This document shows, in pieces, positions 1,245 to 48,778 of a stretch of 64,000 nt of DNA. A program made the translations under genes and the position numbers. Position 1 is the first letter of the stretch; each line of letters begins with the position of its first letter. Location of the stretch: NCBI RefSeq assembly GCF_058153355.1, contig NZ_CM177019.1. One strand, given 5' to 3'. The notes below the pieces were generated by a model, which had not been told where the DNA came from, ran no database searches, and saw nothing but the letters and a program-made list of their open reading frames with translations.

Positions 1245-1301
1245 TGTAAGATATGCATAACTACTCCTCTGCTTTTCCTGCTCCGAAGAGCAGAAATCGC
1301 A

Positions 1302-1311
1302 GGGGGGGGGG
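1302..1311. repeat. G10 homopolymer tract in an intergenic region
   Basis: direct read: a followed by ten g at 1302..1311. Confidence 0.9.
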
Positions 1312-1508
1312 ATTGCCTGAAAATTTTCCTGCATGAAAAGCACACTTTGTATCCGTATAGGAAAAACCAGACGACAACAGTGTAAACCTTACGGTTAACA
1401 TTTTAACCCAGGTCTGACGACTGTCAGGTTCGTGCTGATGCTTTTTATTTTCTGTGAAGCAGAATGCTTTGCTGAATGACATTTTGAGTTTCTGTATTAC
1501 AGGAGTGA

Positions 1509-1790
1509 TTGATGATTAGGTGCCACCTGAACAGACTGATGGGTGAACGCAGATTAAAGGTTGCCGATGTGGTCCGCGATACCGGTCTTCCGCGTAGCAC
1601 TGTCACAGCGCTCTGGAAAGATAACGCCACCCGGATTGAGTTGCCAGTGCTAAGCATTCTCTGTCATTATTTTAATTGTGATGTCAGTGAGTTACTGGAG
1701 TTTACTTCTGATGAAAGTCACGTTGAGTTATCTCGTCCAGGAAAAGGTTTAAATAATTTTTCACATCGTGTCTGGTTTATGCGTAAATAA
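1509..1790 (+). CDS. small XRE/Cro-like helix-turn-helix protein
   Basis: 93-aa ORF; LKVADVVRDTGLPRSTVTALW ... DVSELLEF resembles XRE-family HTH. Confidence 0.4.
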   Translation: MMIRCHLNRLMGERRLKVADVVRDTGLPRSTVTALWKDNATRIELPVLSILCHYFNCDVSELLEFTSDESHVELSRPGKGLNNFSHRVWFMRK

Positions 1791-1886
1791 GACAAAATCA
1801 TTAGTGGGTTGTATTTTAATGTTAATGATTTTGTCATTATTAATTTTAGATTTGTTGCTTTTTACCAAAGTTTTGTTTATTCATAG

Positions 1887-2606
1887 CTACCATTTTAAAT
1901 AATTACAAGCAGCAGTGTCTGCTCTATATGAACAGTTTATTTTAGCTGCTTCGTAGCCGATTAAACCTATAATGGGGTTATTGTTCTCATTGTCGTTGTA
2001 AATATCTTTTAGGAGGTTATCTCCTTGTTGGCTGGCCCAGCTCTGAGAGTCATTATTAAAATCATAATAATATTTTGCTGAGAGCAGTTGGACGGGTTGC
2101 TCGGTATCTGGCAAAACGCTCCAGATAATAATTTGCTTAACTCTGATGATTTCATTTTCAGCCTGTTTTTTAGCTGCGCTTAAACCTTCTTTCAATTTTG
2201 AATTGTCTGGTTCTTTCTTAAAACAATAAGGATCACTTCCATTGGCGACACAGGCCTCATTGTATTGGTCTATAGAGCGCTTTGCGCTTTCTATCAAACT
2301 GGCGTAGCCATTAGCAAACCGAGTCATTTCCCTTTTCCAAATGCTATTTGTTGCAGATGCCGACATATCACACGTATAAGTAACAGTCTGGTGTCCTTGT
2401 TCATCGGTTCCATCTTCCCATTTAAACAATTCACATCGCTGGCGATGCTCTAATGCAGTCCCAAGGGTTCTGGTTGAGTCTATATTTGATAATACCTGTG
2501 ATTTTATAATTTCCTGATTGTCTGAAGCGGATACATTATCACAGCCAGTAAGAATAAATATTGAGCAACTGATAAACAATCCAATAAGTACTTTTCTTTT
2601 AGACAT
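1887..2606 (-). CDS. hypothetical lipoprotein
   Basis: 239-aa ORF; N-terminal signal peptide with lipobox LTGC. Confidence 0.5.
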   Translation of the reverse strand: MSKRKVLIGLFISCSIFILTGCDNVSASDNQEIIKSQVLSNIDSTRTLGTALEHRQRCELFKWEDGTDEQGHQTVTYTCDMSASATNSIWKREMTRFANGYASLIESAKRSIDQYNEACVANGSDPYCFKKEPDNSKLKEGLSAAKKQAENEIIRVKQIIIWSVLPDTEQPVQLLSAKYYYDFNNDSQSWASQQGDNLLKDIYNDNENNNPIIGLIGYEAAKINCSYRADTAACNYLKW

Positions 2607-2682
2607 GAGTGATTCCTTTTTAAGTTTTGGTAAATTACGTGACCTTGACTAAATCAGGTCTGATAAGATGGTTAATCTGGTT

Positions 2683-3153
2683 TTAATGAATGAAGGGCAT
2701 ATGTTCGATGCCTGTATAAAGTAAATTGCTCCTGGCATTGATCGTATTGGTCAGACAGGCGTGACTTTCAATTTCTTTACCCATAGAGTTCATGACACTG
2801 ATATGAGCATCAGGCTGACCTTTGTACTCTTCATAAGTGATAGCCATAGCGCCTTCTATATTCTCTCCAGTTCCTCGCAATACAAAGACTCTATTGTCAG
2901 TAACATCATTTGCGGTGATGGACTGCTGCGCTTGACCTGAATGAGTATTCAGTTTGATGACTACGCTGCCTTTATCAGAACTTTTATCCTGTGATTTATA
3001 GGTAATATATACGATGTCTTTTTTATGACTCAGTGTCATAACCCCACCAGTATCAAGTGTGCATTTTAGATCCCAGTTTTCCTGACCAGCCAGTGAAGAA
3101 CTGCTTAACAACATTAGTATATAAAAAGATGCTTTTATTTTTACAATATTCAT
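2683..3153 (-). CDS. hypothetical secreted protein
   Basis: 156-aa ORF with hydrophobic N-terminal signal sequence ending ...SSLAGQ. Confidence 0.45.
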   Translation of the reverse strand: MNIVKIKASFYILMLLSSSSLAGQENWDLKCTLDTGGVMTLSHKKDIVYITYKSQDKSSDKGSVVIKLNTHSGQAQQSITANDVTDNRVFVLRGTGENIEGAMAITYEEYKGQPDAHISVMNSMGKEIESHACLTNTINARSNLLYTGIEHMPFIH

Positions 3154-3189
3154 ATAGCCTGCTGATTAAGTGGGGCGACTATTCTTAAT

Positions 3190-3945
3190 TTATGAAGCTG
3201 CTCCTCTATTAATACTCTTTATCTGATGAGCAATATTTTTATATGAACGATGATTAGCCGAGTTCATTACATCATGGATATAAGGAAAATGAGGTAAGGA
3301 TGAGATGAACCGCTCACCCGCAGTGAGATGGCAGATGTCATCTCTGCGCACAAAACTCTCTGTGGTTAACTTCACCTGGATGATGCTGGCTACTGGAATA
3401 ACCCTGATTATTTCGGCCTGACAGGCAACTAAATACCATTTTCCTTCCGTGTGAATAAGACGATAAGGTTCAAAGACCGCGTGAGAATCATTGCCAGTCA
3501 GCAAATGAATACAGTTTTGTTGACAGATCGCCTGTATCAGCCGCTGAAAACATTCTGATGATACAACCGAGTCAGAATGCGATGAAGACCAGATAAGGCA
3601 GGGAGAATACGACGTTTCACCCGTGAGGTAATGCATCAACCTGCGATCAGGTGACGGAAATAATTGAGAGATTCCGGTGTTACGCATAAACGCCAGAACA
3701 TCTAATGAACTGTCTGTAAAGCGTTTCCCGTCAAGTCGCCAGCGCCCATTCTCACTAACGATATTAAGGTGGAGTAATCGCTGGTGGAAATCTCGCTGTA
3801 GCGTTCGTTCAGATACTCCAAACTCTTCTGCCAGGTTTTTTAGGTCAAGAGACTCTCCTGACAGTAACCGGCTAATAATCTGTGTCAGCCTGATGGCAAA
3901 CCGGTCATAACGAGTCGATGTAGTGTTCATCAGAAAAACGTCCAT
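3190..3945 (-). CDS. WYL-domain transcriptional regulator (YfjR/BrxR-like); start codon uncertain (ORF extends to 4068)
   Basis: motif EPYRLIHTEGKWYLVACQ (WYL signature) plus N-terminal HTH-like region LKNLAEEFGVSERTLQRD. Confidence 0.55.
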   Translation of the reverse strand: MDVFLMNTTSTRYDRFAIRLTQIISRLLSGESLDLKNLAEEFGVSERTLQRDFHQRLLHLNIVSENGRWRLDGKRFTDSSLDVLAFMRNTGISQLFPSPDRRLMHYLTGETSYSPCLIWSSSHSDSVVSSECFQRLIQAICQQNCIHLLTGNDSHAVFEPYRLIHTEGKWYLVACQAEIIRVIPVASIIQVKLTTESFVRRDDICHLTAGERFISSLPHFPYIHDVMNSANHRSYKNIAHQIKSINRGAAS

Positions 3946-4166
3946 GGATAACTTACTGTTTTTAATGATGTTATTATGAATCATGAGCACGACAGGATAT
4001 GTCGTAGTAACGGGAGGAATAGAGAAAAAACGTCCAGACAAATAACTAAGTAATATCCTGATTAACAATAACTATTTTTTCCAGAGACAGAACTGAAGCA
4101 GGTCGCGACATATCCTGTCGCTGAAACTCATAATTTTCAGGTGGCTTAACTCAGTGGGTAGATGTA

Positions 4167-5051
4167 TTAGAAAAACCAGTGCCATATTGCGGTAGCTGCA
4201 TTCTCCAGCCCTTCTCTGAGCACTCCCAACCCGTTGCGTATCATGTTGGGGAGAGGTATGGCCTCCAGAATCCTGCTCAATAATTCTCCCAACAAATCCG
4301 CGAAATCCTTTCGGGCCTTCGTCTCCGATTCTTTGGTGCGATGTTCTTTCCTGATCTGGCGAAAGACGCCACTGGTAGCCTCTGGTGGCAGGGCAAAAAT
4401 CATTGTTTCAACTATACGAGACATGTTGTAACCGGTTTTTGCTGAAACAGCATGCACCGGGTAAGGGGTAAAGAACTGGCGGGAAACGGCAGCACTTCTC
4501 GCTGTGAGCGTCATGAGTTGCTTCACTGAAGGAGATCCTTTTTCACGATCCCATTCCAGTGATGGCTCGGCTTTGTCAGCCTGGTTGATAACAAAAACAA
4601 TGCTGTCTGTCGATACGCCACAATCCAGTAGAAAACGGTGGAATTCTTCGTCTGTGGTACAGGCGCGGTCATCGGCTTTCATCACCCAGAGAATGAGATC
4701 CAGCTTCGGTAACTGTTCCTGATACATCTGGCGATATATCTCATCATGCTTCAGCGATTCACCTGCGCCCGGCAGATCGATCAGCGTCAGGCTGCGTCCT
4801 CCAGCGTTCAGGGTAAAATGCAAAGGTTTACGTGTGCAGCCTTCTGCATGGCTGACTGGGCTGAGAGGATGTTCAAAAAGAGCATTGCAAAGCGAGGATT
4901 TTCCGGCACCTGTTTTGCCCATGATGCCAATCACGGGTTCGTAATGAATACTCTGGCGTATATGCTCCAGAACCAAATCGGAGATATGTTCAGGAAGAAT
5001 GGATAAAGGTTGCTTCAGGACATTAATGCCCCGTTCAAAGGAATCAGACAT
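4167..5051 (-). CDS. YfjP/YkfA-family GTPase (P-loop GTP-binding protein)
   Basis: G1 motif GKTGAGKSS, DLPG (G3-like) and NQADK (G4 NKxD-like); GGAGG RBS upstream of the ATG at 5051; ORF extends to 5105. Confidence 0.6.
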   Translation of the reverse strand: MSDSFERGINVLKQPLSILPEHISDLVLEHIRQSIHYEPVIGIMGKTGAGKSSLCNALFEHPLSPVSHAEGCTRKPLHFTLNAGGRSLTLIDLPGAGESLKHDEIYRQMYQEQLPKLDLILWVMKADDRACTTDEEFHRFLLDCGVSTDSIVFVINQADKAEPSLEWDREKGSPSVKQLMTLTARSAAVSRQFFTPYPVHAVSAKTGYNMSRIVETMIFALPPEATSGVFRQIRKEHRTKESETKARKDFADLLGELLSRILEAIPLPNMIRNGLGVLREGLENAATAIWHWFF

Positions 5052-5215
5052 GTAGCCTCCGGAATGAAAAAATTCGATACAGCAACTTCGCTGCAATGTA
5101 TTCATTGCGGTAATACAGGTCTGTTTTTTTTTGCATTCGAATTACGGGGAGGAATGTGGTTTTGTGGAGCAAACCGGGGGCATTGCCCCGGTTCACTGAT
5201 ATGGTGAAATGATAT

Positions 5216-5455
5216 CTAACGTCGCATTACCCATTCATTCAGTTCTGACTCCAGCCAGCCAACGGATTGCCTTCCCAAGCGTTTTTGTTTTGGAAATGTT
5301 CCATCGTAGCGTGGCGATTTTGGATTAAGCCAGTCGTATATGGTTGAGCGTGAAATTCCCATTTTTTTCATTACATCTTTTAGCCTCAAGATCCTCGGTG
5401 AATCAGGAATATTTGCGTAACTGGATGTATGTAAGGAGGGAGGGTTCTGTAACAT
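5216..5455 (-). CDS. alpA: AlpA-family phage regulatory protein (HTH)
   Basis: 79-aa ORF; ISRSTIYDWLNPKSPRYDGTFPK matches the AlpA signature of P4/CP4-57-type elements. Confidence 0.65.
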   Translation of the reverse strand: MLQNPPSLHTSSYANIPDSPRILRLKDVMKKMGISRSTIYDWLNPKSPRYDGTFPKQKRLGRQSVGWLESELNEWVMRR

Positions 5456-5568
5456 CTAGGCTTCCTTAGTATGAGTTTGTTCGGGTGGGTCCATATTGCC
5501 AACCACGCTGGGGCTGTCATACACTGGAAGTAACATTAAAATAAAATCACTTTAGGGATTTACTTTTC

Positions 5569-6450
5569 ATGAAGGATGTGGGTGCGAATTTTTTTGATGA
5601 TTTCTATCTGCAAGTTTGTACCGCTTGTGAGGACAAACTTCTTGAGCTGGAATGGAAACTTGAAGTCGAAAAAAAGGAGAGCAACCAAGATGTTCTGCGC
5701 ACTTACAGGCAAAGAGCCTATGATAAAATTGAAGAATTTAAAATTATTGAGTATTCAAAAATACAATGTCAATATTTTGTAGATATGACTAATAGCGACA
5801 ATATACGCTACTCACAAGAGTTTATAAATGTTGATGGAATAATGGTTGAGAAACCTTTTATTTATAAGGAAACATATGCAGAATATCGGATTGAAATTCG
5901 AGGAAAAATGGACGGGTATAAACTGACAGGATTAGCAAGACTATATGATGCACATTATGAATATATATATCTATCTATGGCTTTAGAAGATTTTTACTGG
6001 GCGCAGTTCCAATATTCATTGGGCAATAAAAAAGAAAGTTGTAAGTTTCTTCTTGATGCTTATTCTTATATGAATGTCTGTATTTCGCGAGATGATAACC
6101 GAGACTCACCGAGTTTTCATCGATTAAGAAGTGGTTTTGATAAAGTATGCAGAAGAGCGCGCTCAAGCGCTGGAGGGAAAAATAAACTTGCAGAACTTGA
6201 ATATATTAAAGATACAGTTGTTATCTTACTTGAAGATATTCCTTCACATAGCGACTGGAAAAATAAACGTCAACTTCTTGAATATTTAATGCCCTATATT
6301 TGTAATAATGATAAAAAGGTCAATCCAGATAAATGGATAAATGATACAGGCGATAGAGAGGAAACTATCCGCCGCAGACTTAATAAATGGTTTACAGGTG
6401 ATCTAAAAGTAGAGATTGATAAAGTCCTAAAGAACAATACTAACAATTAA
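5569..6450 (+). CDS. hypothetical protein, AT-rich orphan
   Basis: 293-aa ORF, strongly AT-rich codon usage, transcribed divergently from alpA; no recognisable motif. Confidence 0.5.
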   Translation: MKDVGANFFDDFYLQVCTACEDKLLELEWKLEVEKKESNQDVLRTYRQRAYDKIEEFKIIEYSKIQCQYFVDMTNSDNIRYSQEFINVDGIMVEKPFIYKETYAEYRIEIRGKMDGYKLTGLARLYDAHYEYIYLSMALEDFYWAQFQYSLGNKKESCKFLLDAYSYMNVCISRDDNRDSPSFHRLRSGFDKVCRRARSSAGGKNKLAELEYIKDTVVILLEDIPSHSDWKNKRQLLEYLMPYICNNDKKVNPDKWINDTGDREETIRRRLNKWFTGDLKVEIDKVLKNNTNN

Positions 6451-6681
6451 TATTATTATGGTTTTGATATTTTTATGTCTATCAGGAGGGCTACTATACG
6501 ATCAGTCTTGATGGGTTTGAAATTACATCGCTATGAAAATACCCCACATAAATCTATTGGAAAACCAATCATTGTTAATATGACTATTGTTATGATGACT
6601 GTTGTAATTGTGTCTACACGAGAAATTGAATGAAATTTATAGGTTTGAAGTAGCCTTAGTGGTAGTCGAAAATAATTATGT

Positions 6682-6713
6682 AAATGGGCCTGCATTTTGC
6701 AAGAAGGCCCATT
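6682..6713. terminator. hairpin between convergent genes (aaatgggcc ... ggcccattt)
   Basis: 9-bp inverted repeat read directly. Confidence 0.3.
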
Positions 6714-6717
6714 TACG

Positions 6718-7047
6718 TCAGGGGTAAATTATATATCCCATAATCGCACAGATTAACCGGTAATCACTCACGTAGAAGATTTCCGGATTCTCAGTGCTTT
6801 GTTCACCGATAAAGAAGACTTGAGCTCTCTCTTTAGCTTTTTTATTTACTGCTTCTTTTGCTTCTTCCTGCACAGTTTCAAGCTCATTCAAAAGCATAGT
6901 CTTTTTGGCTTTTGACCAGTCTCCCCACTCAATGTGTAGTTTATAGCTACGCGAGGGCTTAAACTTACCAGATTCGTCTTTTGCCCATTCTCCCGAGAGC
7001 GGAATGACAATTCGGTTTTCGTCTTGCTCAAATTTCTGCCATAACAA
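6718..7047 (-). CDS. hypothetical protein (109 aa)
   Basis: ORF co-directional with and downstream of the STAND gene; no motif recognised. Confidence 0.4.
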   Translation of the reverse strand: MLWQKFEQDENRIVIPLSGEWAKDESGKFKPSRSYKLHIEWGDWSKAKKTMLLNELETVQEEAKEAVNKKAKERAQVFFIGEQSTENPEIFYVSDYRLICAIMGYIIYP

Positions 7048-7094
7048 CTGCGAATAAAAAACTCGGCGCTCAGGGTAGGGTTGAACCGGGTCTT

Positions 7095-7628
7095 TTAGTT
7101 TTTTAACACGGTCATGTAAGTATCGGCATTAATACCTGGGATAATTAATGACATACCACGGTCATACGGGAAGCGAATAAATGCCCTACAAATCTGGCGA
7201 ATAGCATTAACCGGGCGGCGGGATTGCCGCGCTGGAGCATTTCCCTCGCTGGATGCCGATGTTGTAGAACGTATTGGATTGGGTTTGTTGTTGTTACCAG
7301 TAGTGTCAGGATCAACAACGGGTCGATTTTCAATCAGTTTTAATCCTGCAGGCATCAAACCTGGTGCGCTATCTAACATGCGGCGGACGCTTTTCTTCTG
7401 CCCCTGTTTAACCACTGTGCTTTCTGCATCAGCATCGCAATTAATGTGCTCTTTTCCAGGCATTTTATTAAACGAAGGTCTTTTCTTACTTCCTTTTTGC
7501 CAAGCAGAAGGATACATCTCAATCCCACATCCCCAGCATACGTAACTGTTCGTATCTACAACATCAAGTAACCAAAGATCTTCTGCCTCAATAATCTCAC
7601 TGGTATATTTATCACGTGCAGATTCCAT
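7095..7628 (-). CDS. hypothetical protein (177 aa) with a CxxC motif
   Basis: good RBS (aaaggagaaatc then ATG); starts 45 bp after the STAND gene stop; contains C-W-G-C. Confidence 0.5.
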   Translation of the reverse strand: MESARDKYTSEIIEAEDLWLLDVVDTNSYVCWGCGIEMYPSAWQKGSKKRPSFNKMPGKEHINCDADAESTVVKQGQKKSVRRMLDSAPGLMPAGLKLIENRPVVDPDTTGNNNKPNPIRSTTSASSEGNAPARQSRRPVNAIRQICRAFIRFPYDRGMSLIIPGINADTYMTVLKN

Positions 7629-7673
7629 GATTTCTCCTTTAAACAGAATTCCTGTGAAGGCGGCTACTAGCCT

Positions 7674-10600
7674 TCATTCAAACCGTTGTTCCAATGCCTC
7701 ATCTTCCAATCGCTCGCGTTCTTTTTCCTTTTCAACCCAGTTAGTCAGTTTTTTATAAACAGCTCTAGCCGACTTAGAAATGTCTGCACGCTCGTGGGTG
7801 ACCAACCGGCCTATCGCTTCAACCCTGGGTTGCATCACGTTCGCACGACTACCGGACCATGATGAAGGTGCTACGTGTTCGGCAAAGATCTCAAGGACGG
7901 CTCGTGGCTCGGGTGAGGCTTCTAGAAATCTCAGAGCATCATCCTGCAAGCAAATAGGACTTTGCTCCCCGTCTTTTGACCATAGATTAATACCTGAAGC
8001 GACTGAAGCCCAAACCTGAGGGTCTTTAGTGGTCCCGCACCATTCAATCAAAATATCTACATCGATTTTCGCAATAGGAGACTGATGTGAATCATCATGA
8101 TTGATGAAATGCAGCCGCCTCTGTTGTTGATCCTCCGTACCATCAAAAATGCGACTGAGAAATTCTTTTGGCATCCATGCAGCGGTGATACCGATAGCGT
8201 CTTCGAAAGAAAAAATGTAGCCAAAATGCTCATCAACAACAGCAAAGATTGTATTCAGCCATTCTAGCTTTTCAGCCTCGTTGCCATCGAAGCGCAATGT
8301 GGCATCGATAACACGTTCCATTGCATAATCCAGATATCCGCCGAGATCGTTGTGATCTCTTTGGAACCTCTGGATTGCAGCGGATAGTCCAATTGTTCGT
8401 AGCGCAAGACCTAGTGTATCCGTAGCATCTCCTTTATCAGGTAGTTTCATACTCAATGCTTCCAATACTACTTCATCACCATTCGGTTTACTCAGCAGCC
8501 TTTGAGCAAGCTCGAGAACCCTGCTTTCTGGCAAATTAGAGAATTGCTCACCCCACAGAATTGCCCCATACATATGGGGCCGTATGTCAGAGTCATCCAG
8601 AAGCGACATGCAACGATCCAGATCGATTTCAGTAAACTCCTGCCAAGGATGTAGGTTGACTAATTCGAATCGAAGTTCGGAATGTTGTGCGCACTGATCG
8701 AGCAGTTCCTGCGCTAATGCTTTATCGATAGAATTCGTCTCTTCTATGAAACCTCGAATAACAGAAAAATCACTTTGAGATTTATGCTGTAGATTCATTT
8801 GAGTGATAAGTTTCTGCCAATAAACTCGTAGGTCAGGTGCTCCTTTAGCTAAGCCTTTACCGAATTCGACGCGATAGGGCATCCCATCTCGTAAGAATAA
8901 ATTAGGGCCTAACTCATCAAGTTCATGCGTGGATACTGCAAAGTCTTGCCCTAACTGGAACGCTTTTGCGTTAAGTATTTCCTTTATTTTTATGAATTTG
9001 TTAGGCCCCTCACGCTCAAAATCGGCATTCAGCGCCCAAAAATCACGCCCCTTACTGAGTACATAAGCCATAACTGCCGGAACCAAGTCATTAGGCTCCA
9101 ATTCTCGTTCCAATGTCACAAGTCCTTCCGGCAAAGGAGCTAAATCTTCGTTGTCATTTCTTTTGGTATGGGAAAAGTAAATTGTTGAGCGGACCGCTTT
9201 CCAGCCTTCACCCCAAGGACGATGGGCATGTAATTTGCGAGCCGCATCAATTAATTTTGACCTCATTCCTTCCTGACGCCAAATCCAGCGAAATTTATTA
9301 GCTAAGATCAGCCGAGCATCATCTTCAAGTTCGGGAACTCTTGAAGTTGCTAATCTCACCACAATGTCGATGAAGGTGATTAGCCACTCAACAAGCTCAT
9401 CGTAGCTGGGTCGAAATCCATAATCTCTTGGCCGAGCACCAAACTCATTAATCCCGAATCCTGTCCACGGTGGTCCGCCGAGAGCAGTTTCAAGCATTTC
9501 GAGCCCCAGCCTTCTACGTCCGGCCATACTTGAACCAATGCATTCATCCATGACCGCAACACGTTGTTCTAAAGAGGCATGGGTACCGGATAGATAAGGT
9601 TGGAAAAACCTCTTTATCTTATTTCGAGCCGAATCATAATTATTGCTCGCGCTTTCCTGATCTGCGATACGGATTAAGAGCTTAATGCATCGTTCAAAGT
9701 ATTTCGATTCATATGCAAGTAACTGCAACAATTTGATAATTGCTGTTCGTTGTGGGTTGTAGCGTGATTTAAAATGCTCAAAATTAGACGTAACAAGTGT
9801 TTCTTCAATCCGCTCAAGCAAAGCTCCCGGGGCGACTGGAGCGACATAATTCAGAATGCGTGTCGAAACATCATCTAGGTCTATTATTTTTCCAAGCAGC
9901 CCTTCGGGCTGTAACCAAGCTTCAACAATCTCTTTAGCCACAGCATGGCTGTGCAATAGTCCCAACCTGTGCGCGAACGACATCAATAATCGTTGTCGAT
10001 CCGGAGCTTCAAAGGTCGTCCTAAGTTGATCAATCGGAATACTATTAAGTGCAGATGCTGCCAACTTGTTAGCAATGGCATGGGGAAGGATGGCTCTCCA
10101 GTGGGATCTTTTCTGAACAACGTGACGTTCCATCAACTTCGTAACAGTTTTGAATAACTGGATTTTGGGATACCCAGAGAGCGCACCCAATATTTCCAGT
10201 TCATCGGTAGCTGCATCTGAACTAGATATTGAGAACGAATACACCAGTGACAATATTTCAGCTTGCTCCCGTAAATGGCCGTCGGGATGATTACGTTGTT
10301 CAAACAAGCGATTAAACAACTGCGCATCTGAAAGTAGGGCTAAACTCTCACCTTCCTCCACTCTTTCCGCTATAGCCAAAGCCACTCTTGCATTCCCATC
10401 TGCGAACTTTGCAATCCGACGGGCATTATTCTGACCAATAGAAGGGAAGCGACGGATAAGAAGTTGCTCTGCCACCTCTGGACCATCTGTCTCAATGTGG
10501 ATGACCTCAGTTGTCTGTGGTTTGTCATCCCTAATGTCGTACTCGATCGTGATGAGACTTACTTCTTTCCCTGCGGCTGATACTTTGCTGGCAAGCGAAG

Positions 10601-11525
10601 CATGGAGTTCTGATGGGCAATTATCAAGGATCATAATTGCTCGTCGGCCTTCAGCGAGCAGGTTATCAAGCATTGCTGTAGCCGACGGTACTGGCTCATA
10701 GCCAGTATCAACATAAATAGCTACTGTCCGGTCAAGCGCATCTGTTCCAACAGTATCATCAAAGAGCGCCTGAACGATTCGAGTCTTCCCAACACCAGAC
10801 AATCCTGTAATACGAACAGCCTTATTCGTCGAACGGATCAGTGCTCGCATTGGGTTAATTGCTTCATCAATTTTGAGTTTTTGCCCCTTTCCCGATGGTA
10901 AAGTAATGGTTACGCTTGGGGCTGAGATTAAAGTGTCTGTAACACCTTGTGGTGGATTGCTCCAGGCTCCGTAGGGTTGCCAACCGGAATACCCTTGCCC
11001 AAGCTTTGCTTTTACCCACAGCATGACTGATGGATGTTGGCGCAACCATTGGATGAGTTTGGAGCGGTCGTAGAAATCAAGATGAAGATAACTTTCGTTA
11101 GGATCATCTTTTACTGCATCTCTCATCGCTTTGAGACGATTCTTCTTTCCTGACGGCGAGCAATCATCACCCAGGCTGACAATGATGTAACTGCCTTGCT
11201 TTCTGGCTTGTTCAGAAATGATGGGAGAAAGTGCTTTTCCGGTGCCAATTTCCCTCTCGATTGCAGCCTTAGGCATCTTATGTTTCTTTGCCTGAAAGAC
11301 CGTATCAGGTCTTACAAGAAAGCCTGCTTTCAGTTGATCAACTGGAACCTGAACATGGATGTCAATTCCTCCGTCAGGGGCTGTAATTGAACCAGACCAA
11401 TTTACACATGCTGGGCTATGGCCGTGCATTGCCACTTCAGCTTCTGCTAGCCGAGCGATCAGCTCTTCCAACTGGATATCGGAGAGCCGAAGTAATTCGT
11501 CCTTTTCAATGTCAAAGATTGCCAC
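7674..11525 (-). CDS. Mrr-like (PD-(D/E)xK) nuclease / STAND P-loop NTPase / long helical C-terminal domain protein; Avs-like antiphage candidate
   Basis: 1283-aa ORF; N-terminal DGGID (residues 51-55) ... QAK (78-80) resembles the Mrr catalytic core; Walker A GLSGVGKT encoded at 10782..10805; Walker B-like AIMILDN; GNARVALAIA resembles the GxP motif of STAND NTPases. Confidence 0.7.
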   Translation of the reverse strand: MAIFDIEKDELLRLSDIQLEELIARLAEAEVAMHGHSPACVNWSGSITAPDGGIDIHVQVPVDQLKAGFLVRPDTVFQAKKHKMPKAAIEREIGTGKALSPIISEQARKQGSYIIVSLGDDCSPSGKKNRLKAMRDAVKDDPNESYLHLDFYDRSKLIQWLRQHPSVMLWVKAKLGQGYSGWQPYGAWSNPPQGVTDTLISAPSVTITLPSGKGQKLKIDEAINPMRALIRSTNKAVRITGLSGVGKTRIVQALFDDTVGTDALDRTVAIYVDTGYEPVPSATAMLDNLLAEGRRAIMILDNCPSELHASLASKVSAAGKEVSLITIEYDIRDDKPQTTEVIHIETDGPEVAEQLLIRRFPSIGQNNARRIAKFADGNARVALAIAERVEEGESLALLSDAQLFNRLFEQRNHPDGHLREQAEILSLVYSFSISSSDAATDELEILGALSGYPKIQLFKTVTKLMERHVVQKRSHWRAILPHAIANKLAASALNSIPIDQLRTTFEAPDRQRLLMSFAHRLGLLHSHAVAKEIVEAWLQPEGLLGKIIDLDDVSTRILNYVAPVAPGALLERIEETLVTSNFEHFKSRYNPQRTAIIKLLQLLAYESKYFERCIKLLIRIADQESASNNYDSARNKIKRFFQPYLSGTHASLEQRVAVMDECIGSSMAGRRRLGLEMLETALGGPPWTGFGINEFGARPRDYGFRPSYDELVEWLITFIDIVVRLATSRVPELEDDARLILANKFRWIWRQEGMRSKLIDAARKLHAHRPWGEGWKAVRSTIYFSHTKRNDNEDLAPLPEGLVTLERELEPNDLVPAVMAYVLSKGRDFWALNADFEREGPNKFIKIKEILNAKAFQLGQDFAVSTHELDELGPNLFLRDGMPYRVEFGKGLAKGAPDLRVYWQKLITQMNLQHKSQSDFSVIRGFIEETNSIDKALAQELLDQCAQHSELRFELVNLHPWQEFTEIDLDRCMSLLDDSDIRPHMYGAILWGEQFSNLPESRVLELAQRLLSKPNGDEVVLEALSMKLPDKGDATDTLGLALRTIGLSAAIQRFQRDHNDLGGYLDYAMERVIDATLRFDGNEAEKLEWLNTIFAVVDEHFGYIFSFEDAIGITAAWMPKEFLSRIFDGTEDQQQRRLHFINHDDSHQSPIAKIDVDILIEWCGTTKDPQVWASVASGINLWSKDGEQSPICLQDDALRFLEASPEPRAVLEIFAEHVAPSSWSGSRANVMQPRVEAIGRLVTHERADISKSARAVYKKLTNWVEKEKERERLEDEALEQRFE

Positions 11526-11972
11526 ATCCTAACCCTATTAAAGATACTGCGACTATATAAAAAGTTACCCTTATTCTAACCAATGACAGAAGGAATGTCC
11601 CTTAAACCGTTGCAATTAAAACCATTCTCATCAAGTAGTTAAGATTTTCTTACTCAGCACTATGATGTTGATCTTACCCACTTTGCGTCAAACTATTAGT
11701 ATGTATAAAGCACATTGCTGGCCTGATTAAGAAATGGATTGATATGTGAGTTAATGTCATTTATGAGCTTAAAGCTATTTTTAATCCCCTTTGCTTTACA
11801 ACTCTTTATATTATTTCATTCTTATTTACACCAATATTTATTGGTATGATGGTTTAATTTAATTCATTTTTGTTTTTTTGTTTGAAGCACATTGAAAGGA
11901 TATTATTATTTTCTCCTTCATGTTGAAAACAATTTAATTGGGCGGGTTTGGTTCGATATTATTAATATCTTT

Positions 11973-12000
11973 TTCAAAGAAATTATTTATATGGTATAAT
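11973..12000 (+). promoter_or_regulatory. putative sigma70 promoter with extended -10 (ttcaaa ... tggtataat)
   Basis: -35-like ttcaaa at 11973..11978, 16-bp spacer, TGnTATAAT at 11992..12000, within a long AT-rich tract upstream of the nuclease-helicase gene. Confidence 0.3.
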
Positions 12001-12032
12001 GCAATAAAATCGTATTGAGGTAAGAGGGTACT

Positions 12033-12227
12033 ATGAGTGGATCTTTTGATTTCTTAGCTGGTTCTTTGGCTCTTGAAAATAAACCTTTCCATATGCAGGT
12101 TGCAGAGCTAATAAAAAATAAGTTTCGTCATTGTGAGGGATATATTGGCTATAAGCTTGCAACTTTGGGACGGGCATCGGACTCCGATGTTCCAGATTTT
12201 ATCATTATACAAAAGAACATGGCATAA
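12033..12227 (+). pseudogene. 5' portion of nuclease-helicase gene (NERD/PD-(D/E)xK-like N-terminus), separated from the helicase frame by an apparent -1 frameshift
   Basis: 64-aa ORF with RBS gaggtaagaggg; ends ...SDVPDFIIIQKNMA; adding one A to the A4 run at 12211..12214 gives DFIIIQKEHGIILVDMVESK, continuous with the helicase ORF. Confidence 0.45.
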
Positions 12228-12238
12228 TTTTAGTTGAC

Positions 12239-14248
12239 ATGGTTGAAAGTAAGGTTTCTCGTGCGGATGAGGTGCAGGGGAATGAGGTTTGGTATTATGA
12301 GCATGGAGGTTCGAGTGTAGCAAGGAATTTTATTGTCGAGTTGTATGAGGAGGAGGTAAGAAGTAGATTAAAAAACGATGCAAATTTCTACAACAGAAGA
12401 AAAAAAACATGCACAGTTCCGATTACTAGCGCTGTTATTTTTTGTAAAAATAATAATAGTGAGATAGACAATTTCTATCAAGAGTATGCTGATTATGAAA
12501 GTTCAGCTATTGAATATGGCGAGATTGAGAATTGGTTAGATAGCGTTGAAGAAGGGTTCAATTGCGATTCTAAAGTTCTGGGGCGAATTTTTTCATTGTT
12601 AGAGGGGACGTTTATATATGAAAATAAAAAAATTCTCGATGAAGAACCACCCCTTAACACTGTGAATGATTATATCAAAAAATCTCTAAATATAACATTT
12701 AATCAAGATCACTCACAACGTATTGCTTCAATGCAACTAACCCCGGGCCCTCAGAGAATTCGTGGCTTGGCCGGAACAGGTAAGACGATAGTTCTTTCAT
12801 TAAAAGCTGCGATAACGCACAAAAAATTTCCAGATTATAAAATATTATATTTATTTAATACACAAAGCTTATATCAAAATGTGCAGAGTTCAATCGCCAG
12901 ATACTATACTTTAGAAGCCAAAAAAGCGCCAGATTTTGAATCGAATCTAAATGTCTTCCATGCGTGGGGTGGTAGGCAGAAACCGGGACTGTATTCATAT
13001 ATTTGCCAACAGTATGGATTAACTCCACTAACATTAGGAGATGTACGTGGAGCAAGTGATGCCTTAGCTGTCATATATGCAGAACTTCTCAAAAAAATCG
13101 GTGGTGATATAAAGCCTGAATATGATCTTATTTTAATAGATGAAGCCCAAGATTTTCCTAAAGAGTTGTTTGAAGTGGTCTTTAAACTAGCAAAGGGCAA
13201 ACCTCATGAGAAAAGGATCGTTTGGGCGTATGATGAATTCCAGTCATTGAAAGACACTCAAATTAAAGGTCCATCTGAGCTATTTGGTTTGGCCAAAGAT
13301 GGCACCCCAAATATGAGTGATGATGTTTTAGATGGATTCTATCCTGGTGACATAAAAAAAGATATTGTTTTATCCAATTGCTATAGGACTCCTCGTCCTG
13401 CTCTTATGACTGCTCACGGAGTAGCATTAGGACTTTATACTAATAAGCCGAATGAAATGTTTTATAACCATGATGAATGGAAAGCTATTGGCTATAAAGT
13501 TTTAAATCCTCAGACAAAAATCATTGCAAAAGGCAATGATGTGCAAATAGAGAGACCTAATGAAAATAGTCTAAATCTGTTGGAAGGAATTATGACAGAG
13601 CAGGGTAAGAGGGCCCTTAACCTTATCCAGACTAAGGTGGAAAATGATCGGGAAAGTCAATATGAATATATTGCAAGTAACATCAAACGTTTAATTGATG
13701 AGGAAAATGTCTCGCCTGAAGAAATAGTCATAATTAATTTGAAGTCCTCTAGTAACAAAGATGAGATGCTACGCATTCAATTCATCTTAAATAATTACGG
13801 TATTCACTCTGTAATTCCCGGTTACGTTGAAAGCTCAGATGTCTTTAAACCCAAGGGGTTCGTTACAATCACAACCCCTTTCAGGGCTAAAGGGAATGAA
13901 GCTAATATTGTATTTATTTTAAATAGCCAGTTAGTTGTTAATGATTTTTCATTAAGGATGCGTAATGCATTTTTTGTAGCAGTAACTCGAACAAGAGGAT
14001 GGTGTTATATTGTTGGTTATGGAGAAAAAATGCAAATGCTTGTGGACGAAATTTCAGGAATCAAAAGAGATTTCCCTATATTTAATTTCATTTGTCCTGA
14101 CCCTGATGATGTCAAAGCACGAAAAAGTTATCTCCACAAATCAGACTCTGAGATCAATGAGATGCAAAGAGTACTGGATTTAGTTAATAATAACGAAGAG
14201 TTAAGACGACTGCTACAGGAGCAGCTCATTGATAAGAAAGGAGATTAA
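12239..14248 (+). CDS. SF1 helicase (UvrD/RecD-like), probable C-terminal body of a nuclease-helicase fusion
   Basis: 669-aa ORF; Walker A GLAGTGKT at 12764..12787; Walker B LILIDEAQDF; FVAVTRTRGW motif VI-like. Confidence 0.7.
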   Translation: MVESKVSRADEVQGNEVWYYEHGGSSVARNFIVELYEEEVRSRLKNDANFYNRRKKTCTVPITSAVIFCKNNNSEIDNFYQEYADYESSAIEYGEIENWLDSVEEGFNCDSKVLGRIFSLLEGTFIYENKKILDEEPPLNTVNDYIKKSLNITFNQDHSQRIASMQLTPGPQRIRGLAGTGKTIVLSLKAAITHKKFPDYKILYLFNTQSLYQNVQSSIARYYTLEAKKAPDFESNLNVFHAWGGRQKPGLYSYICQQYGLTPLTLGDVRGASDALAVIYAELLKKIGGDIKPEYDLILIDEAQDFPKELFEVVFKLAKGKPHEKRIVWAYDEFQSLKDTQIKGPSELFGLAKDGTPNMSDDVLDGFYPGDIKKDIVLSNCYRTPRPALMTAHGVALGLYTNKPNEMFYNHDEWKAIGYKVLNPQTKIIAKGNDVQIERPNENSLNLLEGIMTEQGKRALNLIQTKVENDRESQYEYIASNIKRLIDEENVSPEEIVIINLKSSSNKDEMLRIQFILNNYGIHSVIPGYVESSDVFKPKGFVTITTPFRAKGNEANIVFILNSQLVVNDFSLRMRNAFFVAVTRTRGWCYIVGYGEKMQMLVDEISGIKRDFPIFNFICPDPDDVKARKSYLHKSDSEINEMQRVLDLVNNNEELRRLLQEQLIDKKGD

Positions 14249-14250
14249 AA

Positions 14251-14922
14251 TTGAATTTCTCATTAGTGCAGCAAAGCTTAAACCATGTCGAAGCACTTTT
14301 AAAACCTGTAACTCAACAAAAATTAATAGAGTTTAAAGAAAGAGAGAAGGTCATAAGTTGGACAAATAGGAAGCCAGGAATTTACAATGAAGTCTACTAT
14401 CCTATTGAATATCAATGTGTAATTGATGCAAGGCAGTACTCATTATTGCTTCGAGATGGCGATTTTTTTCAATTTTTTTATGAGTTTGATGCGAAAACTG
14501 GCAATCTGAAGAAAGCTAAGTTGGCTTTCTATCCCTCACCAATTGATTGTAGAAATTCGTTGGATGATCTCAATGAAGCAGCTGAATTTGCTTTTGATCA
14601 TAATGAAGAACTCTATAATCATCTTGATAATTGGATTTCGCTATTGGAAATAAAAAACTATTTTCCAGCAAATACATCTCAAGTTAGATTTGATTATGAT
14701 AGTACGGTTACTACACATGAGAAAGCACATCTGCAGTTTAGTAGTGTAAATAAACTTAGACTTCCGGCTGACTTTTTTCCTTTGCCATATGCATTTGTAT
14801 TAATGGTTTCTGATCTTATTAATGGATGCTCAAAGGTAGATGCTAGACATATAAGCTTTACTAAGAGAAACAGCCTAAGATCAAATGTTTCTAATAGAAT
14901 CATAACCTTGAAATCACAGTGA
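14251..14922 (+). CDS. hypothetical protein, helicase-coupled partner (223 aa)
   Basis: TTG start 3 bp after the helicase stop, AGGAG RBS 7 nt upstream; AT-rich; no motif recognised. Confidence 0.5.
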   Translation: MNFSLVQQSLNHVEALLKPVTQQKLIEFKEREKVISWTNRKPGIYNEVYYPIEYQCVIDARQYSLLLRDGDFFQFFYEFDAKTGNLKKAKLAFYPSPIDCRNSLDDLNEAAEFAFDHNEELYNHLDNWISLLEIKNYFPANTSQVRFDYDSTVTTHEKAHLQFSSVNKLRLPADFFPLPYAFVLMVSDLINGCSKVDARHISFTKRNSLRSNVSNRIITLKSQ

Positions 14923-14928
14923 ATTAAC

Positions 14929-14962
14929 AAGCCTCTTTTATAAGGATATAAGAGGCTTGTTA
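14929..14962. terminator. bidirectional hairpin terminator (aacaagcctctt ... aagaggcttgtt)
   Basis: perfect 12-bp inverted repeat between the convergent partner gene and integrase. Confidence 0.45.
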
Positions 14963-15372
14963 TTATTTCGCTAAATCTGATCACTGTCGAGAATTGATTG
15001 ATTTTTTGTGATTATTTATTCCATTCTGAGTTCATTGCCGATTTTATATGTATGTATTTTGTATCGGCTTATCTTGGCTTATTAAGTCTAGCATCACACA
15101 ATGCTTTTCAGGAAATCATCTTACCTATTAACCATATTATTACCGGCCCAACATTTCTCGCATTTACAGCTGGTAGCTCCTGTGTGTAAACGCTATTAAT
15201 CTCATACTCATTGGTTTAATATTAACTTTGAACTTCTGGAGTGCAGATCACCAATCCTAATATTACTACTAAATAGCTGCGCCTAATAACGCGACACCCG
15301 CCGTTTACTGTCTGGTGGCTTAACCTGCAAGGGCTGGCTGAAAGTGGGACACTATTCCGCGCAGCTATTTAG

Positions 15373-16614
15373 TCACCCAACTAGCTTCATTCCTTTTATC
15401 CCACCTTCAATCATGCTTCCACGATCCGCTGCCATCACAAAATTTGCCCACCATTGCATCATCGGGCGACGCTGTTCCAGGTAATCGCTGCGGTTATAAG
15501 CACGACGAACCTCATTCTTATCCACATGGGCCAATGCTGCCTCAATGACATCAGGCGGAAAGCCTTGTTCATTAAGAGCCGTACTGGCAATTGATCTCAG
15601 ACCATGCGAAACAAGCACACCACCAAAACCTGCGCGTTTTAGTGAGGCGTTAACAGTCTGACTGTTCATTGGCTGGTTGGGCTTGATACGGCTGGGAAAG
15701 ATAAATTCTCGGTTGCCGCTTAGCGGTTTCATCATCTCCAGCACAGCTATTGCTTCATCTGACAATGGAACAGTATGATCGCGGTTCATTTTCATGCGTG
15801 CTGCAGGAATCTTCCACTCTCGCGCTTCTATGTCTACCTCTTCCCAGCGAGCTTCAGCCGCTTCGGCAGGGCGGGTAATAGTAAGAAGTTGCCACATGAA
15901 CAGGCAGCGTGTGGAAAGGCTAATGCTGGCTGTTCGCATTGTCTGCATCAATTGAGGTAGCTGATCCGGTCGAATGCTGGGCATGTTCTTTTTCTGAGGC
16001 TTCTCGAAGGCTTTACCGATATTAACGCTGGGAACAGCATCAATCAGCCCTGTGTTTTGGGCATAGATCATGACCTCATTAATGCGCTGACACAGGCGAC
16101 GAACGGTTTCCAGTGCTCCTCTGGCCTGAACTGGTTGGACGGCCTGAACCAGTGTGTGTGCTTTAATATCTGTAACGCTAATGTCGCCAATTGCAGGAAA
16201 GACATCTCTCTCAAGAGAGCGCCAGATATCCTCTGCGTAGTCTTCGGTCACACTGGCTTTCTTCACATTCCACCAACGTTCAGCCACGAGCTGGAAAGTA
16301 TTGGTTTTAGCTTCCAGCGAACTGCGAAGTTGTTCTTGTTGATGTTCCTGGGGATCAATTTGTTTCGCCAGAAGAGAGCGGGACTCTGCCCGATAGTTTC
16401 GGGCATCGGCAAGGGTAACTGACGGGTAGGGGCCTATGCTCTTCTTCGCACGTTTCTTAGTGACAGGGCGAATGTAGCGAAACTGCCAGATTTTACTTCC
16501 GCTGGATTTGATGAGTAGCTCAAGGCCATCACCATCATAGAGAACGTAGTCCGCTTCTTTGGGTTTGGCGGATTCGATTTCTTTAACGGATAGAGGTTTG
16601 GTTTGTCTTGCCAT
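15373..16614 (-). CDS. intA: P4-type tyrosine integrase (IntA-like) next to ssrA
   Basis: 413-aa ORF; C-terminal catalytic region with HGLRS ... EAALAH ... RAY pattern; position immediately 5' of the tmRNA 3' end. Confidence 0.85.
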   Translation of the reverse strand: MARQTKPLSVKEIESAKPKEADYVLYDGDGLELLIKSSGSKIWQFRYIRPVTKKRAKKSIGPYPSVTLADARNYRAESRSLLAKQIDPQEHQQEQLRSSLEAKTNTFQLVAERWWNVKKASVTEDYAEDIWRSLERDVFPAIGDISVTDIKAHTLVQAVQPVQARGALETVRRLCQRINEVMIYAQNTGLIDAVPSVNIGKAFEKPQKKNMPSIRPDQLPQLMQTMRTASISLSTRCLFMWQLLTITRPAEAAEARWEEVDIEAREWKIPAARMKMNRDHTVPLSDEAIAVLEMMKPLSGNREFIFPSRIKPNQPMNSQTVNASLKRAGFGGVLVSHGLRSIASTALNEQGFPPDVIEAALAHVDKNEVRRAYNRSDYLEQRRPMMQWWANFVMAADRGSMIEGGIKGMKLVG

Positions 16615-16818: not shown

Positions 16819-17181
16819 TGGTGGAGCTGGCGGGAGTTGAACCCGCGTCCGAAATTCCTACATCCTCGGTACTACATGCTTAGTCAGTCTTTACATTCGC
16901 TTGCCAGCTGCGGACGGACACGCCACTAACAAACTAGCCTGATTAAGTTTTAACGCTTCAACCCCAGGCAGGGCTTCCACGCGATCTCTTTTGGGTTTGA
17001 CCTCTCTTGATCCCCGTCCTAAGAGCGGAGGCTAGGGAGAGAGGGCTCTAAGCAGGTTATTAAGCTGCTAAAGCGTAGTTTTCGTCGTTTGCGACTATTT
17101 TTTGCGGCTTTTTACGAGGCCAACCGCCCCTCGGCATGCACCTTGGGTTTCGCAAATCCCGTCGAATCCAGAATCAGCCCC
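16819..17181 (-). ncRNA. ssrA: tmRNA (SsrA)
   Basis: reverse complement begins GGGGCTGATTCTGGATTCGACGGG and ends ...GTTCAACTCCCGCCAGCTCCACCA; tag-encoding region present. Confidence 0.92.
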
Positions 17182-34031: not shown

Positions 34032-35153
34032 ATGGTTGCTGAGTTGACCGCATTACGCGATCAAATTGATGAAGTCGATAAAGCGCTGCTGAATTTATTA
34101 GCGAAGCGTCTGGAACTGGTTGCTGAAGTTGGCGAGGTGAAAAGCCGCTTTGGACTGCCTATTTATGTTCCGGAGCGCGAGGCATCTATGTTGGCCTCGC
34201 GTCGTGCAGAGGCGGAAGCTCTGGGTGTACCGCCAGATCTGATTGAGGATGTTTTGCGTCGGGTGATGCGTGAATCTTACTCCAGTGAAAACGACAAAGG
34301 ATTTAAAACACTTTGTCCGTCACTGCGTCCGGTGGTTATCGTCGGCGGTGGCGGTCAGATGGGACGCCTGTTCGAGAAGATGCTGACGCTCTCGGGTTAT
34401 CAGGTGCGGATTCTGGAGCAACATGACTGGGATCGAGCGGCTGATATTGTTGCCGATGCCGGAATGGTGATTGTTAGTGTGCCCATCCACGTTACTGAGC
34501 AAGTTATCGGCAAATTACCGCCTTTACCGAAAGATTGTATTCTGGTTGATCTGGCATCAGTGAAAAATGGACCATTACAGGCCATGCTGGCGGCGCACGA
34601 TGGCCCGGTGCTGGGGTTACACCCGATGTTCGGCCCGGACAGCGGTAGCCTGGCAAAGCAAGTTGTGGTCTGGTGTGATGGACGTAAGCCCGAAGCATAC
34701 CAATGGTTTCTGGAGCAAATTCAGGTCTGGGGCGCTCGGTTGCATCGTATTAGCGCTGTCGAGCACGATCAGAATATGGCGTTTATTCAGGCTTTGCGCC
34801 ACTTTGCTACTTTTGCTTATGGGCTGCACCTGGCAGAAGAAAATGTTCAGCTTGAGCAACTACTGGCGCTCTCTTCGCCGATTTACCGCCTTGAGCTGGC
34901 GATGGTCGGGCGACTGTTTGCTCAGGATCCGCAGCTTTATGCCGACATTATTATGTCGTCAGAGCGTAATCTGGCGTTAATCAAACGTTACTATAAGCGT
35001 TTCGGCGAGGCGATTGAGTTGCTGGAGCAGGGCGATAAGCAGGCGTTTATTGACAGTTTCCGCAAGGTGGAGCACTGGTTCGGCGATTACGCACAGCGTT
35101 TTCAGAGTGAAAGCCGCGTGTTATTGCGTCAGGCGAATGACAGTCGCCAGTAA
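34032..35153 (+). CDS. tyrA: chorismate mutase / prephenate dehydrogenase TyrA
   Basis: 373-aa [20 protein letters not shown]... Confidence 0.92.
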
Positions 35154-35195: not shown

Positions 35196-36356
35196 TTATG
35201 CCGGATCGACTGGTACCACATTCTCGCTTGGGTAACAGCCCAGGACTTTCATCGAGCGAGTGATTTCACCTAGCTCTTTCAACGCCTGTTGCATTTCCGC
35301 TGATTCCAGATTGGCCTGAATATCCAGATAAAACATCTCTTCCCACGGGTTTCCGTGAATCGGGCGTGATTCCAGACGGGTCATAATCAGATTGTGGTTG
35401 CGCAGTACCAGCAACGCTTCAACCAGCGCACCAGCTTGTTGTCCGGTCGCCATTAACAACGTCGTTTTCGCCGGAACCTGGTCAGAAACGTTAATGGCTT
35501 TACGTGCCAACACCACAAATCGGGTGAAGTTTTGTCGCTGATTCGCTTCAATATGCTCCAGTACCTGCAAACCGTACAAAGTGCCGCCAGCTTCGCTTCC
35601 CAACGCAGCAACATGCGGTGATTTTGCCTGTGCAACCTTTTCCATTGCCGCAGACGTACTTTCGGTATATTCAATCTTCCAGTGCGGATAACGATTAAGG
35701 AATTTGCTGCATTGCTGGAATGGCTGCGGATGGCTGTAGACCGTATTAATGGTGGATAAATCAGTAGTGCCGGAGACCAACAAACAATGATCGATAGTTA
35801 ACGTCATCTCGCCAACAATCGACAAACTGGTATGTTGCAGCAGATCGTAAACGTCGTTTATGGCACCGGAGCTGGTATTTTCAATCGGTACGACGGCATA
35901 GTCGGCCTGGCCGGTTTCCACCTGATTAAAAATATCGGCAAATTTGGCGCAGCCACTTTCAATGAATTGCTCAAAGTGACGCGCAGCGTACTGACGAGCG
36001 GCAAGATGTGAATAGGAGCCTTTGGGGCCGAGAAAAGCGATGCGTGCTGAGTGCGGATTAATTTTATTGAGATGTTGCTGGAGCAGTGCCTGCTGAGTTA
36101 ATACGGAATCTTCAATGATGAGCTGGAACAGGCGAGTAATGTAATGGGCGTCCAGATGGTGCGCTTTACCGAGCGTAATTAATCTTTCCAGCAAATCGCG
36201 TTCGCGATCAATATCACGTACCGGGCGATGAGAGAGCAGTTTGGCTTTTCCCACCTCGACGGCCAGTTCGCGCCGCTCTGCCAGTAATGCTAATAATTTT
36301 TCATCCAGCGCGCTGATTTTCTCTCGCAGCGCCAGTAACGGGTTTTCCGATGTCAT
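35196..36356 (-). CDS. pheA: chorismate mutase / prephenate dehydratase PheA
   Basis: 386-aa [25 protein letters not shown]... Confidence 0.92.
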
Positions 36357-36365
36357 AGTGTTGCC

Positions 36366-36400
36366 TTTTTGTTATCAATAAAAAAGGCCCCCCGGTTTGG
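36366..36400 (-). terminator. pheA attenuator terminator
   Basis: minus-strand aaggcctcccaaaccgggggccttttttatt hairpin plus U-run between pheL and pheA. Confidence 0.6.
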
Positions 36401-36454
36401 GAGGCCTTATTGTTCGTCTTCGCATTCTGTTTCACACGACGAAACGCCTCCCAT

Positions 36455-36502
36455 TCAGGGGAAGGTAAAAAAGAATGCGAAGAAAAACGGTGTGTGTTTC
36501 AT
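36455..36502 (-). CDS. pheL: pheA leader peptide PheL (Phe-rich)
   Basis: minus-strand ATG AAA CAC ACA CCG TTT TTC TTC GCA TTC TTT TTT ACC TTC CCC TGA = [15 protein letters not shown]. Confidence 0.75.
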   Translation of the reverse strand: [15 protein letters not shown]

Positions 36503-36605
36503 GTTTGTTTCCTTAAGTGACTTCAGTACAGTACCCGTACTGTTTTCACGCTGTCAACAAAAAACGCGCCCGAAGGCGCGTTGGCGATACACTCAATATA
36601 AAGGA

Positions 36606-37001
<396 letters not shown>

Positions 37002-43763: not shown

Positions 43764-45305
<1,542 letters not shown>

Positions 45306-45390
45306 CCTTAAAGAACTGTTCTTTGCAGTGCTCACACAGATTGTCTGATAGAAAGTGAAAAGCAAGGCGTCTTGCGAAGCAGACTGATAC

Positions 45391-45466
45391 GTCCCCTTCG
45401 TCTAGAGGCCCAGGACACCGCCCTTTCACGGCGGTAACAGGGGTTCGAATCCCCTAGGGGACGCCA
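45391..45466 (+). tRNA. gltW: tRNA-Glu (spacer tRNA)
   Basis: gtccccttcgtctagaggcccaggacaccgccctttcacggcggtaacaggggttcgaatcccctaggggacgcca; 76 nt. Confidence 0.92.
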
Positions 45467-45660
45467 CTTGCTGGTTTGTGAGTGAAAGTCGCCGACCTTA
45501 ATATCGTTAAAGATGACTTACGAGTCATGTTTAAGATATTTGCTCTTTAAAAATCTGGATCAAGCTGAAAATTGAAACACTGAACAACGAAAGTTGTTCG
45601 TGAGTCTCTCAAATTTTCGCAACACGATGATGAATCGAAAGAAACATCTTCGGGTTGTGA

Positions 45661-48565
<2,905 letters not shown>

Positions 48566-48658
48566 ACAACGCCGAAGGTGTTTTGGCGGATTGAGAGAAG
48601 ATTTTCAGCCTGATACAGATTAAATCAGAACGCAGAAGCGGTCTGATGAAACAGAATT

Positions 48659-48778
48659 TGCCTGGCGGCCTTAGCGCGGTGGTCCCACCTGACCCCATGC
48701 CGAACTCAGAAGTGAAACGCCGTAGCGCCGATGGTAGTGTGGGGTCTCCCCATGCGAGAGTAGGGAACTGCCAGGCAT
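48659..48778 (+). rRNA. rrfG: 5S ribosomal RNA
   Basis: TGCCTGGCGGCCTTAGCGCGGTGGTCCCACCTGACCCCATGCC ... GAACTGCCAGGCAT; 120 nt. Confidence 0.93.

Follow-up and report, generated by a model that had tools for sequence, protein, structure and literature searches.

A 15-codon leader peptide gene, pheL, was recognized in the 64,000-nt stretch of DNA analysed here (hereafter the window), and its fourth residue is Thr. A preliminary description had presented this residue as a variant of the K-12 leader peptide, with attenuation probably unaffected. The locus raises the question of whether Thr at residue 4 is unusual among E. coli strains, which of the two residues is the older one, and whether the substitution matters for the pheA attenuator downstream.

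The pheL reading frame and its neighbours

The reverse complement of positions 36455-36502 reads ATG AAA CAC ACA CCG TTT TTC TTC GCA TTC TTT TTT ACC TTC CCC TGA. It contains 15 codons, seven of which encode Phe in the pattern FFF-A-FFF-T-F, followed by TGA, and it ends in TTC_CCC_TGA, the terminal sequence of the enterobacterial group-A pheL (UUC_CCC_UGA). The plus-strand translation of the same interval made no sense, and the gene is present on the minus strand only. The 48-nt sequence occurred once in the window and was not found in 100 shuffles. The element had been placed at its exact coordinates in the preliminary description, with the strand left unstated, and the Thr reported there is real, as the minus-strand translation has ACA at codon 4. 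The features of the locus are summarized in Table 1.

Table 1. Features of the pheL-pheA region, in window coordinates
Feature	Coordinates	Strand	Basis or remark
pheL leader-peptide ORF	36455..36502	minus	translation; single match in the window; annotated pheL in 5,425 E. coli genomes
pheA, chorismate mutase/prephenate dehydratase, 386 aa	35196..36356	minus	ORF list and RefSeq annotation of identical loci
raiA, upstream neighbour	36606..36947	minus	ORF list and annotation
raiA terminator	36563..36582	minus	terminator scan
tyrA-sized ORF, convergent	34032..35153		ORF list
Perfect TTGACA, putative -35 hexamer of the pheL-pheA promoter	36552..36557	minus	read from the sequence
Complete Phe_leader attenuator RNA, Rfam RF01859	36378..36503	minus	132.2 bits against a gathering score of 55
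Long 1:2 hairpin (pause/anti-antiterminator)	36412..36488	minus	MFE of the nascent leader and Rfam consensus structure
Antiterminator 5' arm, UGGGAGGC	36446..36453	minus	predicted pairing with 36405..36398
Antiterminator 3' arm, GCCUCCCA, also the terminator 5' arm	36398..36405	minus	folding and terminator scan
Intrinsic terminator of the attenuator	36378..36408	minus	terminator scan and Rfam alignment
Codon 4, ACA (Thr); middle base 36492 polymorphic, K-12 ATA (Ile)	36491..36493	minus	alignment with K-12 and O157:H7
Site G (K-12 A), 22 nt upstream of the ATG	36524	minus	between the promoter region (TTGACA) and the Shine-Dalgarno sequence
Site C in the terminator loop (K-12 and O157:H7 T)	36395	minus	fold energy unchanged

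The pheA gene is on the same strand as pheL and starts 98 nt past the pheL stop codon. A 321-nt query around the leader matched 5,425 of the 5,426 complete E. coli genomes at 95-100% identity, and the matched loci were always annotated with the Phe leader region, pheL, pheA and raiA. One of these genomes was 100% identical over the whole 321-nt region. Judging from these matches, the raiA-pheL-pheA order is the standard E. coli arrangement. The TTGACA hexamer on the minus strand presumably serves as the -35 element of the pheL-pheA promoter, as far as can be read from the letters. A scan of positions 36300-36700 with the sigma-70 consensus gave neither a full promoter match nor a consensus -10 element.

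Several other features were observed in the window. The ssrA gene (tmRNA, tag ANDENYALAA) is located at 16819..17181 on the minus strand, and is adjoined by a tyrosine integrase gene at 15373..16614 with Arm-DNA-bind_3, Phage_int_M and Phage_integrase domains; an island integrated at the ssrA site, at about 1-16600, is implied. This island also contains genes for a GTPase (4167..5105) and a WYL-domain protein (3190..4068). In the region 7095-11525 on the minus strand, a 1,283-aa ORF is a full-length match to PADLOC PD-Lambda-4_A with 2,499.9 bits, and the adjoining 177-aa ORF matched PD-Lambda-4_B with 375 bits over profile positions 1-176 of 303. The latter ORF may encode a B component that is shorter or has been truncated. 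On the plus strand, at 12239-14922, a UvrD-like helicase of 669 aa (PADLOC 'Helicase' PDLC03002, 361.7 bits) is immediately followed by a DUF2290 protein of 223 aa, and the two genes are a candidate defence gene pair. An rrn operon with tRNA-Glu is present at 43764..48776, and RyfD was found upstream of a clpB-sized ORF.

Leader differences from K-12, their frequencies and polarity

In a 281-nt alignment, the window and K-12 were identical at 278 positions, and the differences were located at 36492, 36524 and 36395. The first is the sole coding difference between the two pheL genes, ACA in the window versus ATA in K-12 at codon 4. The translation of pheL from K-12 MG1655 (WP_010723158.1) has Ile at residue 4, so the K-12 peptide given in the preliminary description was correct. 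The other two differences, which are rarer, had been missed there.

The allele counts were obtained using 55-nt megablast queries centred on each single-nucleotide difference, so that both flanks were 27 nt long. As a match requires an exact seed of 28 nt, which cannot avoid the polymorphic base, only genomes with the queried base are found. The method was calibrated at 36524 and 36395, where the counts of the two alleles added up to 5,425 and 5,424 genomes, respectively. At codon 4, ACA (Thr) was found in 4,020 genomes (74.1%) and ATA (Ile) in 1,398 (25.8%), adding up to 5,418 of the 5,425 in which the locus is present; these are frequencies in a database of 5,426 complete E. coli genomes, in which clinical and laboratory lineages are over-represented, and not population frequencies. 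The window thus belongs to the majority Thr4 class and not to the K-12 type. Strain PV15-279 of O157:H7 has the Thr allele (RefSeq WP_001386991.1), and the sampled genomes with Ile4 include K-12 MG1655, DH1, TOP10, MC1061 and MT102. The preliminary description had asked whether reference pheL sequences also encode Thr at this position, and the answer depends on the reference: K-12 does not, and O157:H7 does. The Thr4 form is an already catalogued polymorphism, with a RefSeq accession and annotation in thousands of genomes. The PGAP product name followed the allele in every listed row, being 'pheA operon leader peptide PheL' for Thr4 and 'phe operon leader peptide' for Ile4. A full-text literature search for the Thr4 or the Ile4 peptide string gave no match.

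Leaders from other species were collected by scanning a set of contigs, one genome per species, with the pattern ATGAAA-NNNNNN-CCN(TTY)3GCN(TTY)3ACNTTYCC, and 112 species were recovered. Codons 3 and 4 are CAT ACT in E. albertii, CAA ACG in both E. whittamii and Escherichia sp. E1V33, and CAC ACA in Escherichia sp. MOD1-EC7003, so that all four of the non-coli Escherichia representatives recovered have Thr at residue 4. A leader-wide alignment showed C at the second base of codon 4 also in Huaxiibacter, a Citrobacter amalonaticus strain and Pseudenterobacter, and T in K-12 only. The polarity is based on these four Escherichia species and three other genera, an incomplete outgroup set in that the E. 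coli representative, E. fergusonii, E. marmotae and Salmonella were absent from the scan result. Because C is present at this base in every outgroup examined, Thr4 is taken as the ancestral state and the Ile of K-12 as derived; on this comparison, it is the K-12 lineage that gained a C-to-T transition creating the ATA codon.

Two observations were made on the scan itself. Although the E. coli pheL is an exact fit to the pattern, loci of E. coli, E. fergusonii and Salmonella were missing from the results. The one-genome-per-species collection appears to lack these species; alternatively, the Salmonella pheL may deviate from the pattern. In addition, an enterobacterial-type pheL was found on CACSKA010000005.1, which is titled 'Chryseobacterium sp. 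18061', and this suggests that the assembly is mislabelled or contaminated.

The label of a variant, which had been attached to the window leader because K-12 was taken as the reference, does not hold: with the counts given above and C in all outgroups, the unusual allele is that of K-12. A new, strain-specific mutation, or a sequencing or assembly error, would equally make the window differ from K-12, and nothing beyond this difference speaks for either. A base shared by 4,020 independently assembled complete genomes and all the outgroups examined is neither private to one strain nor an error, and both candidates were rejected. Together with the genome identical over 321 nt, these data make such an origin of Thr4 extremely improbable.

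At the upstream site, G is present in 689 genomes (12.7%) and A in 4,736. E. albertii, E. whittamii and Escherichia sp. E1V33 also have G, and O157:H7 has A; from this distribution, G at 36524 is probably ancestral. The rarest of the three differences of the window from K-12 is the one in the terminator loop, with C in 113 genomes (2.1%) and T in 5,311. E. albertii is the only one of the compared outgroups that also has C at 36395, and the alignment leaves the polarity ambiguous.

An additional difference was observed in O157:H7, which has A at the equivalent of window position 36416, where both the window and K-12 have C. This base is located in a predicted 1x1 internal loop of the 1:2 hairpin and faces U. 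In the model, A at this position could pair with this U, which would close the loop and make the hairpin slightly more stable. This O157:H7-type A may also be present in the 535 genomes that matched at 95-99% identity in the allele search at 36395.

Predicted attenuator folds and the role of residue 4

The match of the leader RNA to RF01859 spans model positions 1-125 of 125 (E=7e-25), and it was obtained again in the whole-window scan. Between the leader ORF and pheA, the terminator at 36408..36384 has a 10-bp stem with seven G-C pairs, a 5-nt loop and a T-run. Together with the seven Phe codons, these results bear out the earlier statement of an intact run of Phe codons and an intact attenuator hairpin.

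For the nascent RNA ending at the terminator loop, the 1:2 hairpin was predicted in the absence of a ribosome, with -32.7 kcal/mol for both alleles. When a ribosome was modelled on Phe codon 7 or 11, UGGGAGGC was predicted to pair with GCCUCCCA, with -23.3 kcal/mol, also for both alleles. In silico, the leader has mutually exclusive forms, with the antiterminator adopted when a ribosome occupies the Phe codons. In the proposed mechanism, classical ribosome-mediated attenuation, an ample supply of Phe-tRNA would let the ribosome pass the seven Phe codons to the stop codon; both the 1:2 hairpin and the terminator would form, and transcription would stop short of pheA. When Phe-tRNA is scarce, the ribosome would stall on the Phe codons and leave UGGGAGGC free to pair with GCCUCCCA, and the antiterminator thus formed would block the terminator, so that pheA would be transcribed. 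The response of pheA to charged tRNA-Phe is known for the K-12 allele (background in PMC3082878), and we infer the same response for the attenuator of the window from this established K-12 work.

The polymorphic base of codon 4 is unpaired in the Rfam alignment, where it is located in the 5' segment, 4 nt upstream of the first paired position. The full leader gave the same structure with -52.9 kcal/mol for the window, the window with ATA, K-12 and the loop variant. An effect of codon 4 on the RNA structure was rejected, as the base lies outside all stems, and the structures and energies are equal for both alleles.

In E. coli, the codon ATA is rare and is decoded by a minor tRNA. It is conceivable, though we consider it unlikely, that the Thr/Ile difference is functional in this way: the rare AUA of K-12 would slow the ribosome at codon 4 and shift the kinetic balance between the 1:2 hairpin and the antiterminator, the leader would be sensitive to the minor tRNA-Ile, and the basal read-through into pheA would differ between ACA and AUA strains. 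With a ribosome modelled at codon 4, the 1:2 hairpin was kept at footprints of 10 and 12 nt (-27.8 and -23.8 kcal/mol, respectively), and only with a generous 15-nt footprint did the antiterminator marginally become the MFE of the nascent RNA (-23.3 kcal/mol). The last value is in favour of a kinetic effect, as is the result that ATA occurs at codon 4 in none of the 112 species of the contig scan. On the other hand, the ATA allele is stably present in 1,398 E. coli genomes, and codon 4 is free to vary across species, with common as well as uncommon codons. Furthermore, in the classical model of the trp leader, a stall upstream of the regulatory codons leaves termination unrelieved. Even if the slowing at AUA were true, the atypical allele would be that of K-12 and not that of the window, and the textbook pheA attenuator of K-12 would then be slightly atypical for the species. 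The earlier expectation of unaffected attenuation agrees with the predicted structures and energies, which are the same for both alleles; the calculation leaves room for a small kinetic effect.

The residue itself varies widely. Among the 112 species, residue 4 is Leu in 33, Thr in 26, Val in 26, Phe in 10, Ile in nine, Gln in six, and Ser and His in one each; the scan pattern fixed residues 1-2 and 5-15, and these numbers are informative on the variability of residues 3 and 4 only. Across the recovered leaders these two residues vary freely, which places residue 4 in a hypervariable N-terminal part of the peptide. A published survey (Gurvich et al. 2011, PMC3082878) found the pheL genes of the enterobacterial group to be invariant in the AUG, in the regulatory Phe codons and in the UUC_CCC_UGA at the end, and variable at all other positions.

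A function of the leader peptide that depends on residue 4, such as nascent-chain stalling or frameshift stimulation, would be suggested by the nascent-peptide-dependent +1 frameshifting of about 15% at CCC_UGA of the K-12 pheL (PMC3082878). However, the stimulator consists of the last three codons, with a two-fold contribution of Pro at -10 (residue 5), and the wild-type level of frameshifting was retained when the upstream peptide was scrambled and the three wild-type codons were kept (PMC3082878). In addition, pheA expression is not affected by the frameshifting in pheL (PMC3082878). Residue 4 lies outside these published nascent-peptide determinants and is not implicated by them. With eight different amino acids at this position among the species scanned, a function dependent on residue 4 is very improbable.

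Taking these points together, it is very probable that the locus is an ordinary E. coli pheL leader with the pheA-operon attenuator, carrying the commonest and ancestral allele (Thr4, ACA), and that Thr/Ile at residue 4 is most likely a neutral polymorphism. The biological weight of the Thr4 observation is very low. The laboratory reference K-12 carries a derived minority allele; Thr (ACA), and not the rare AUA codon for Ile, is typical of the species at position 4 of the leader. As a lesson of method, a difference from K-12 is not to be called a variant before the allele frequency and the outgroups have been checked.

Comparison with known pheL leaders

Among the closest known counterparts is the Thr4 allele of O157:H7 PV15-279 (WP_001386991.1), which has the identical 15-aa peptide and identical pheL nucleotides in the same raiA-pheL-pheA context. 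Its leader differs from that of the window by A at 36524, A instead of C at 36416 and T at 36395, with no difference in the ORF. The K-12 pheL (WP_010723158.1), whose attenuator has been studied experimentally, resembles the window in length, Phe codons, UUC_CCC_UGA, stems and terminator, but has Ile4 (ATA), A at 36524 and T at 36395. The group-A pheL (PMC3082878) and RF01859, from which no difference was noted, share with the window the short ORF with internal Phe runs and UUC_CCC_UGA, as well as the pause, antiterminator and terminator structures upstream of pheA.
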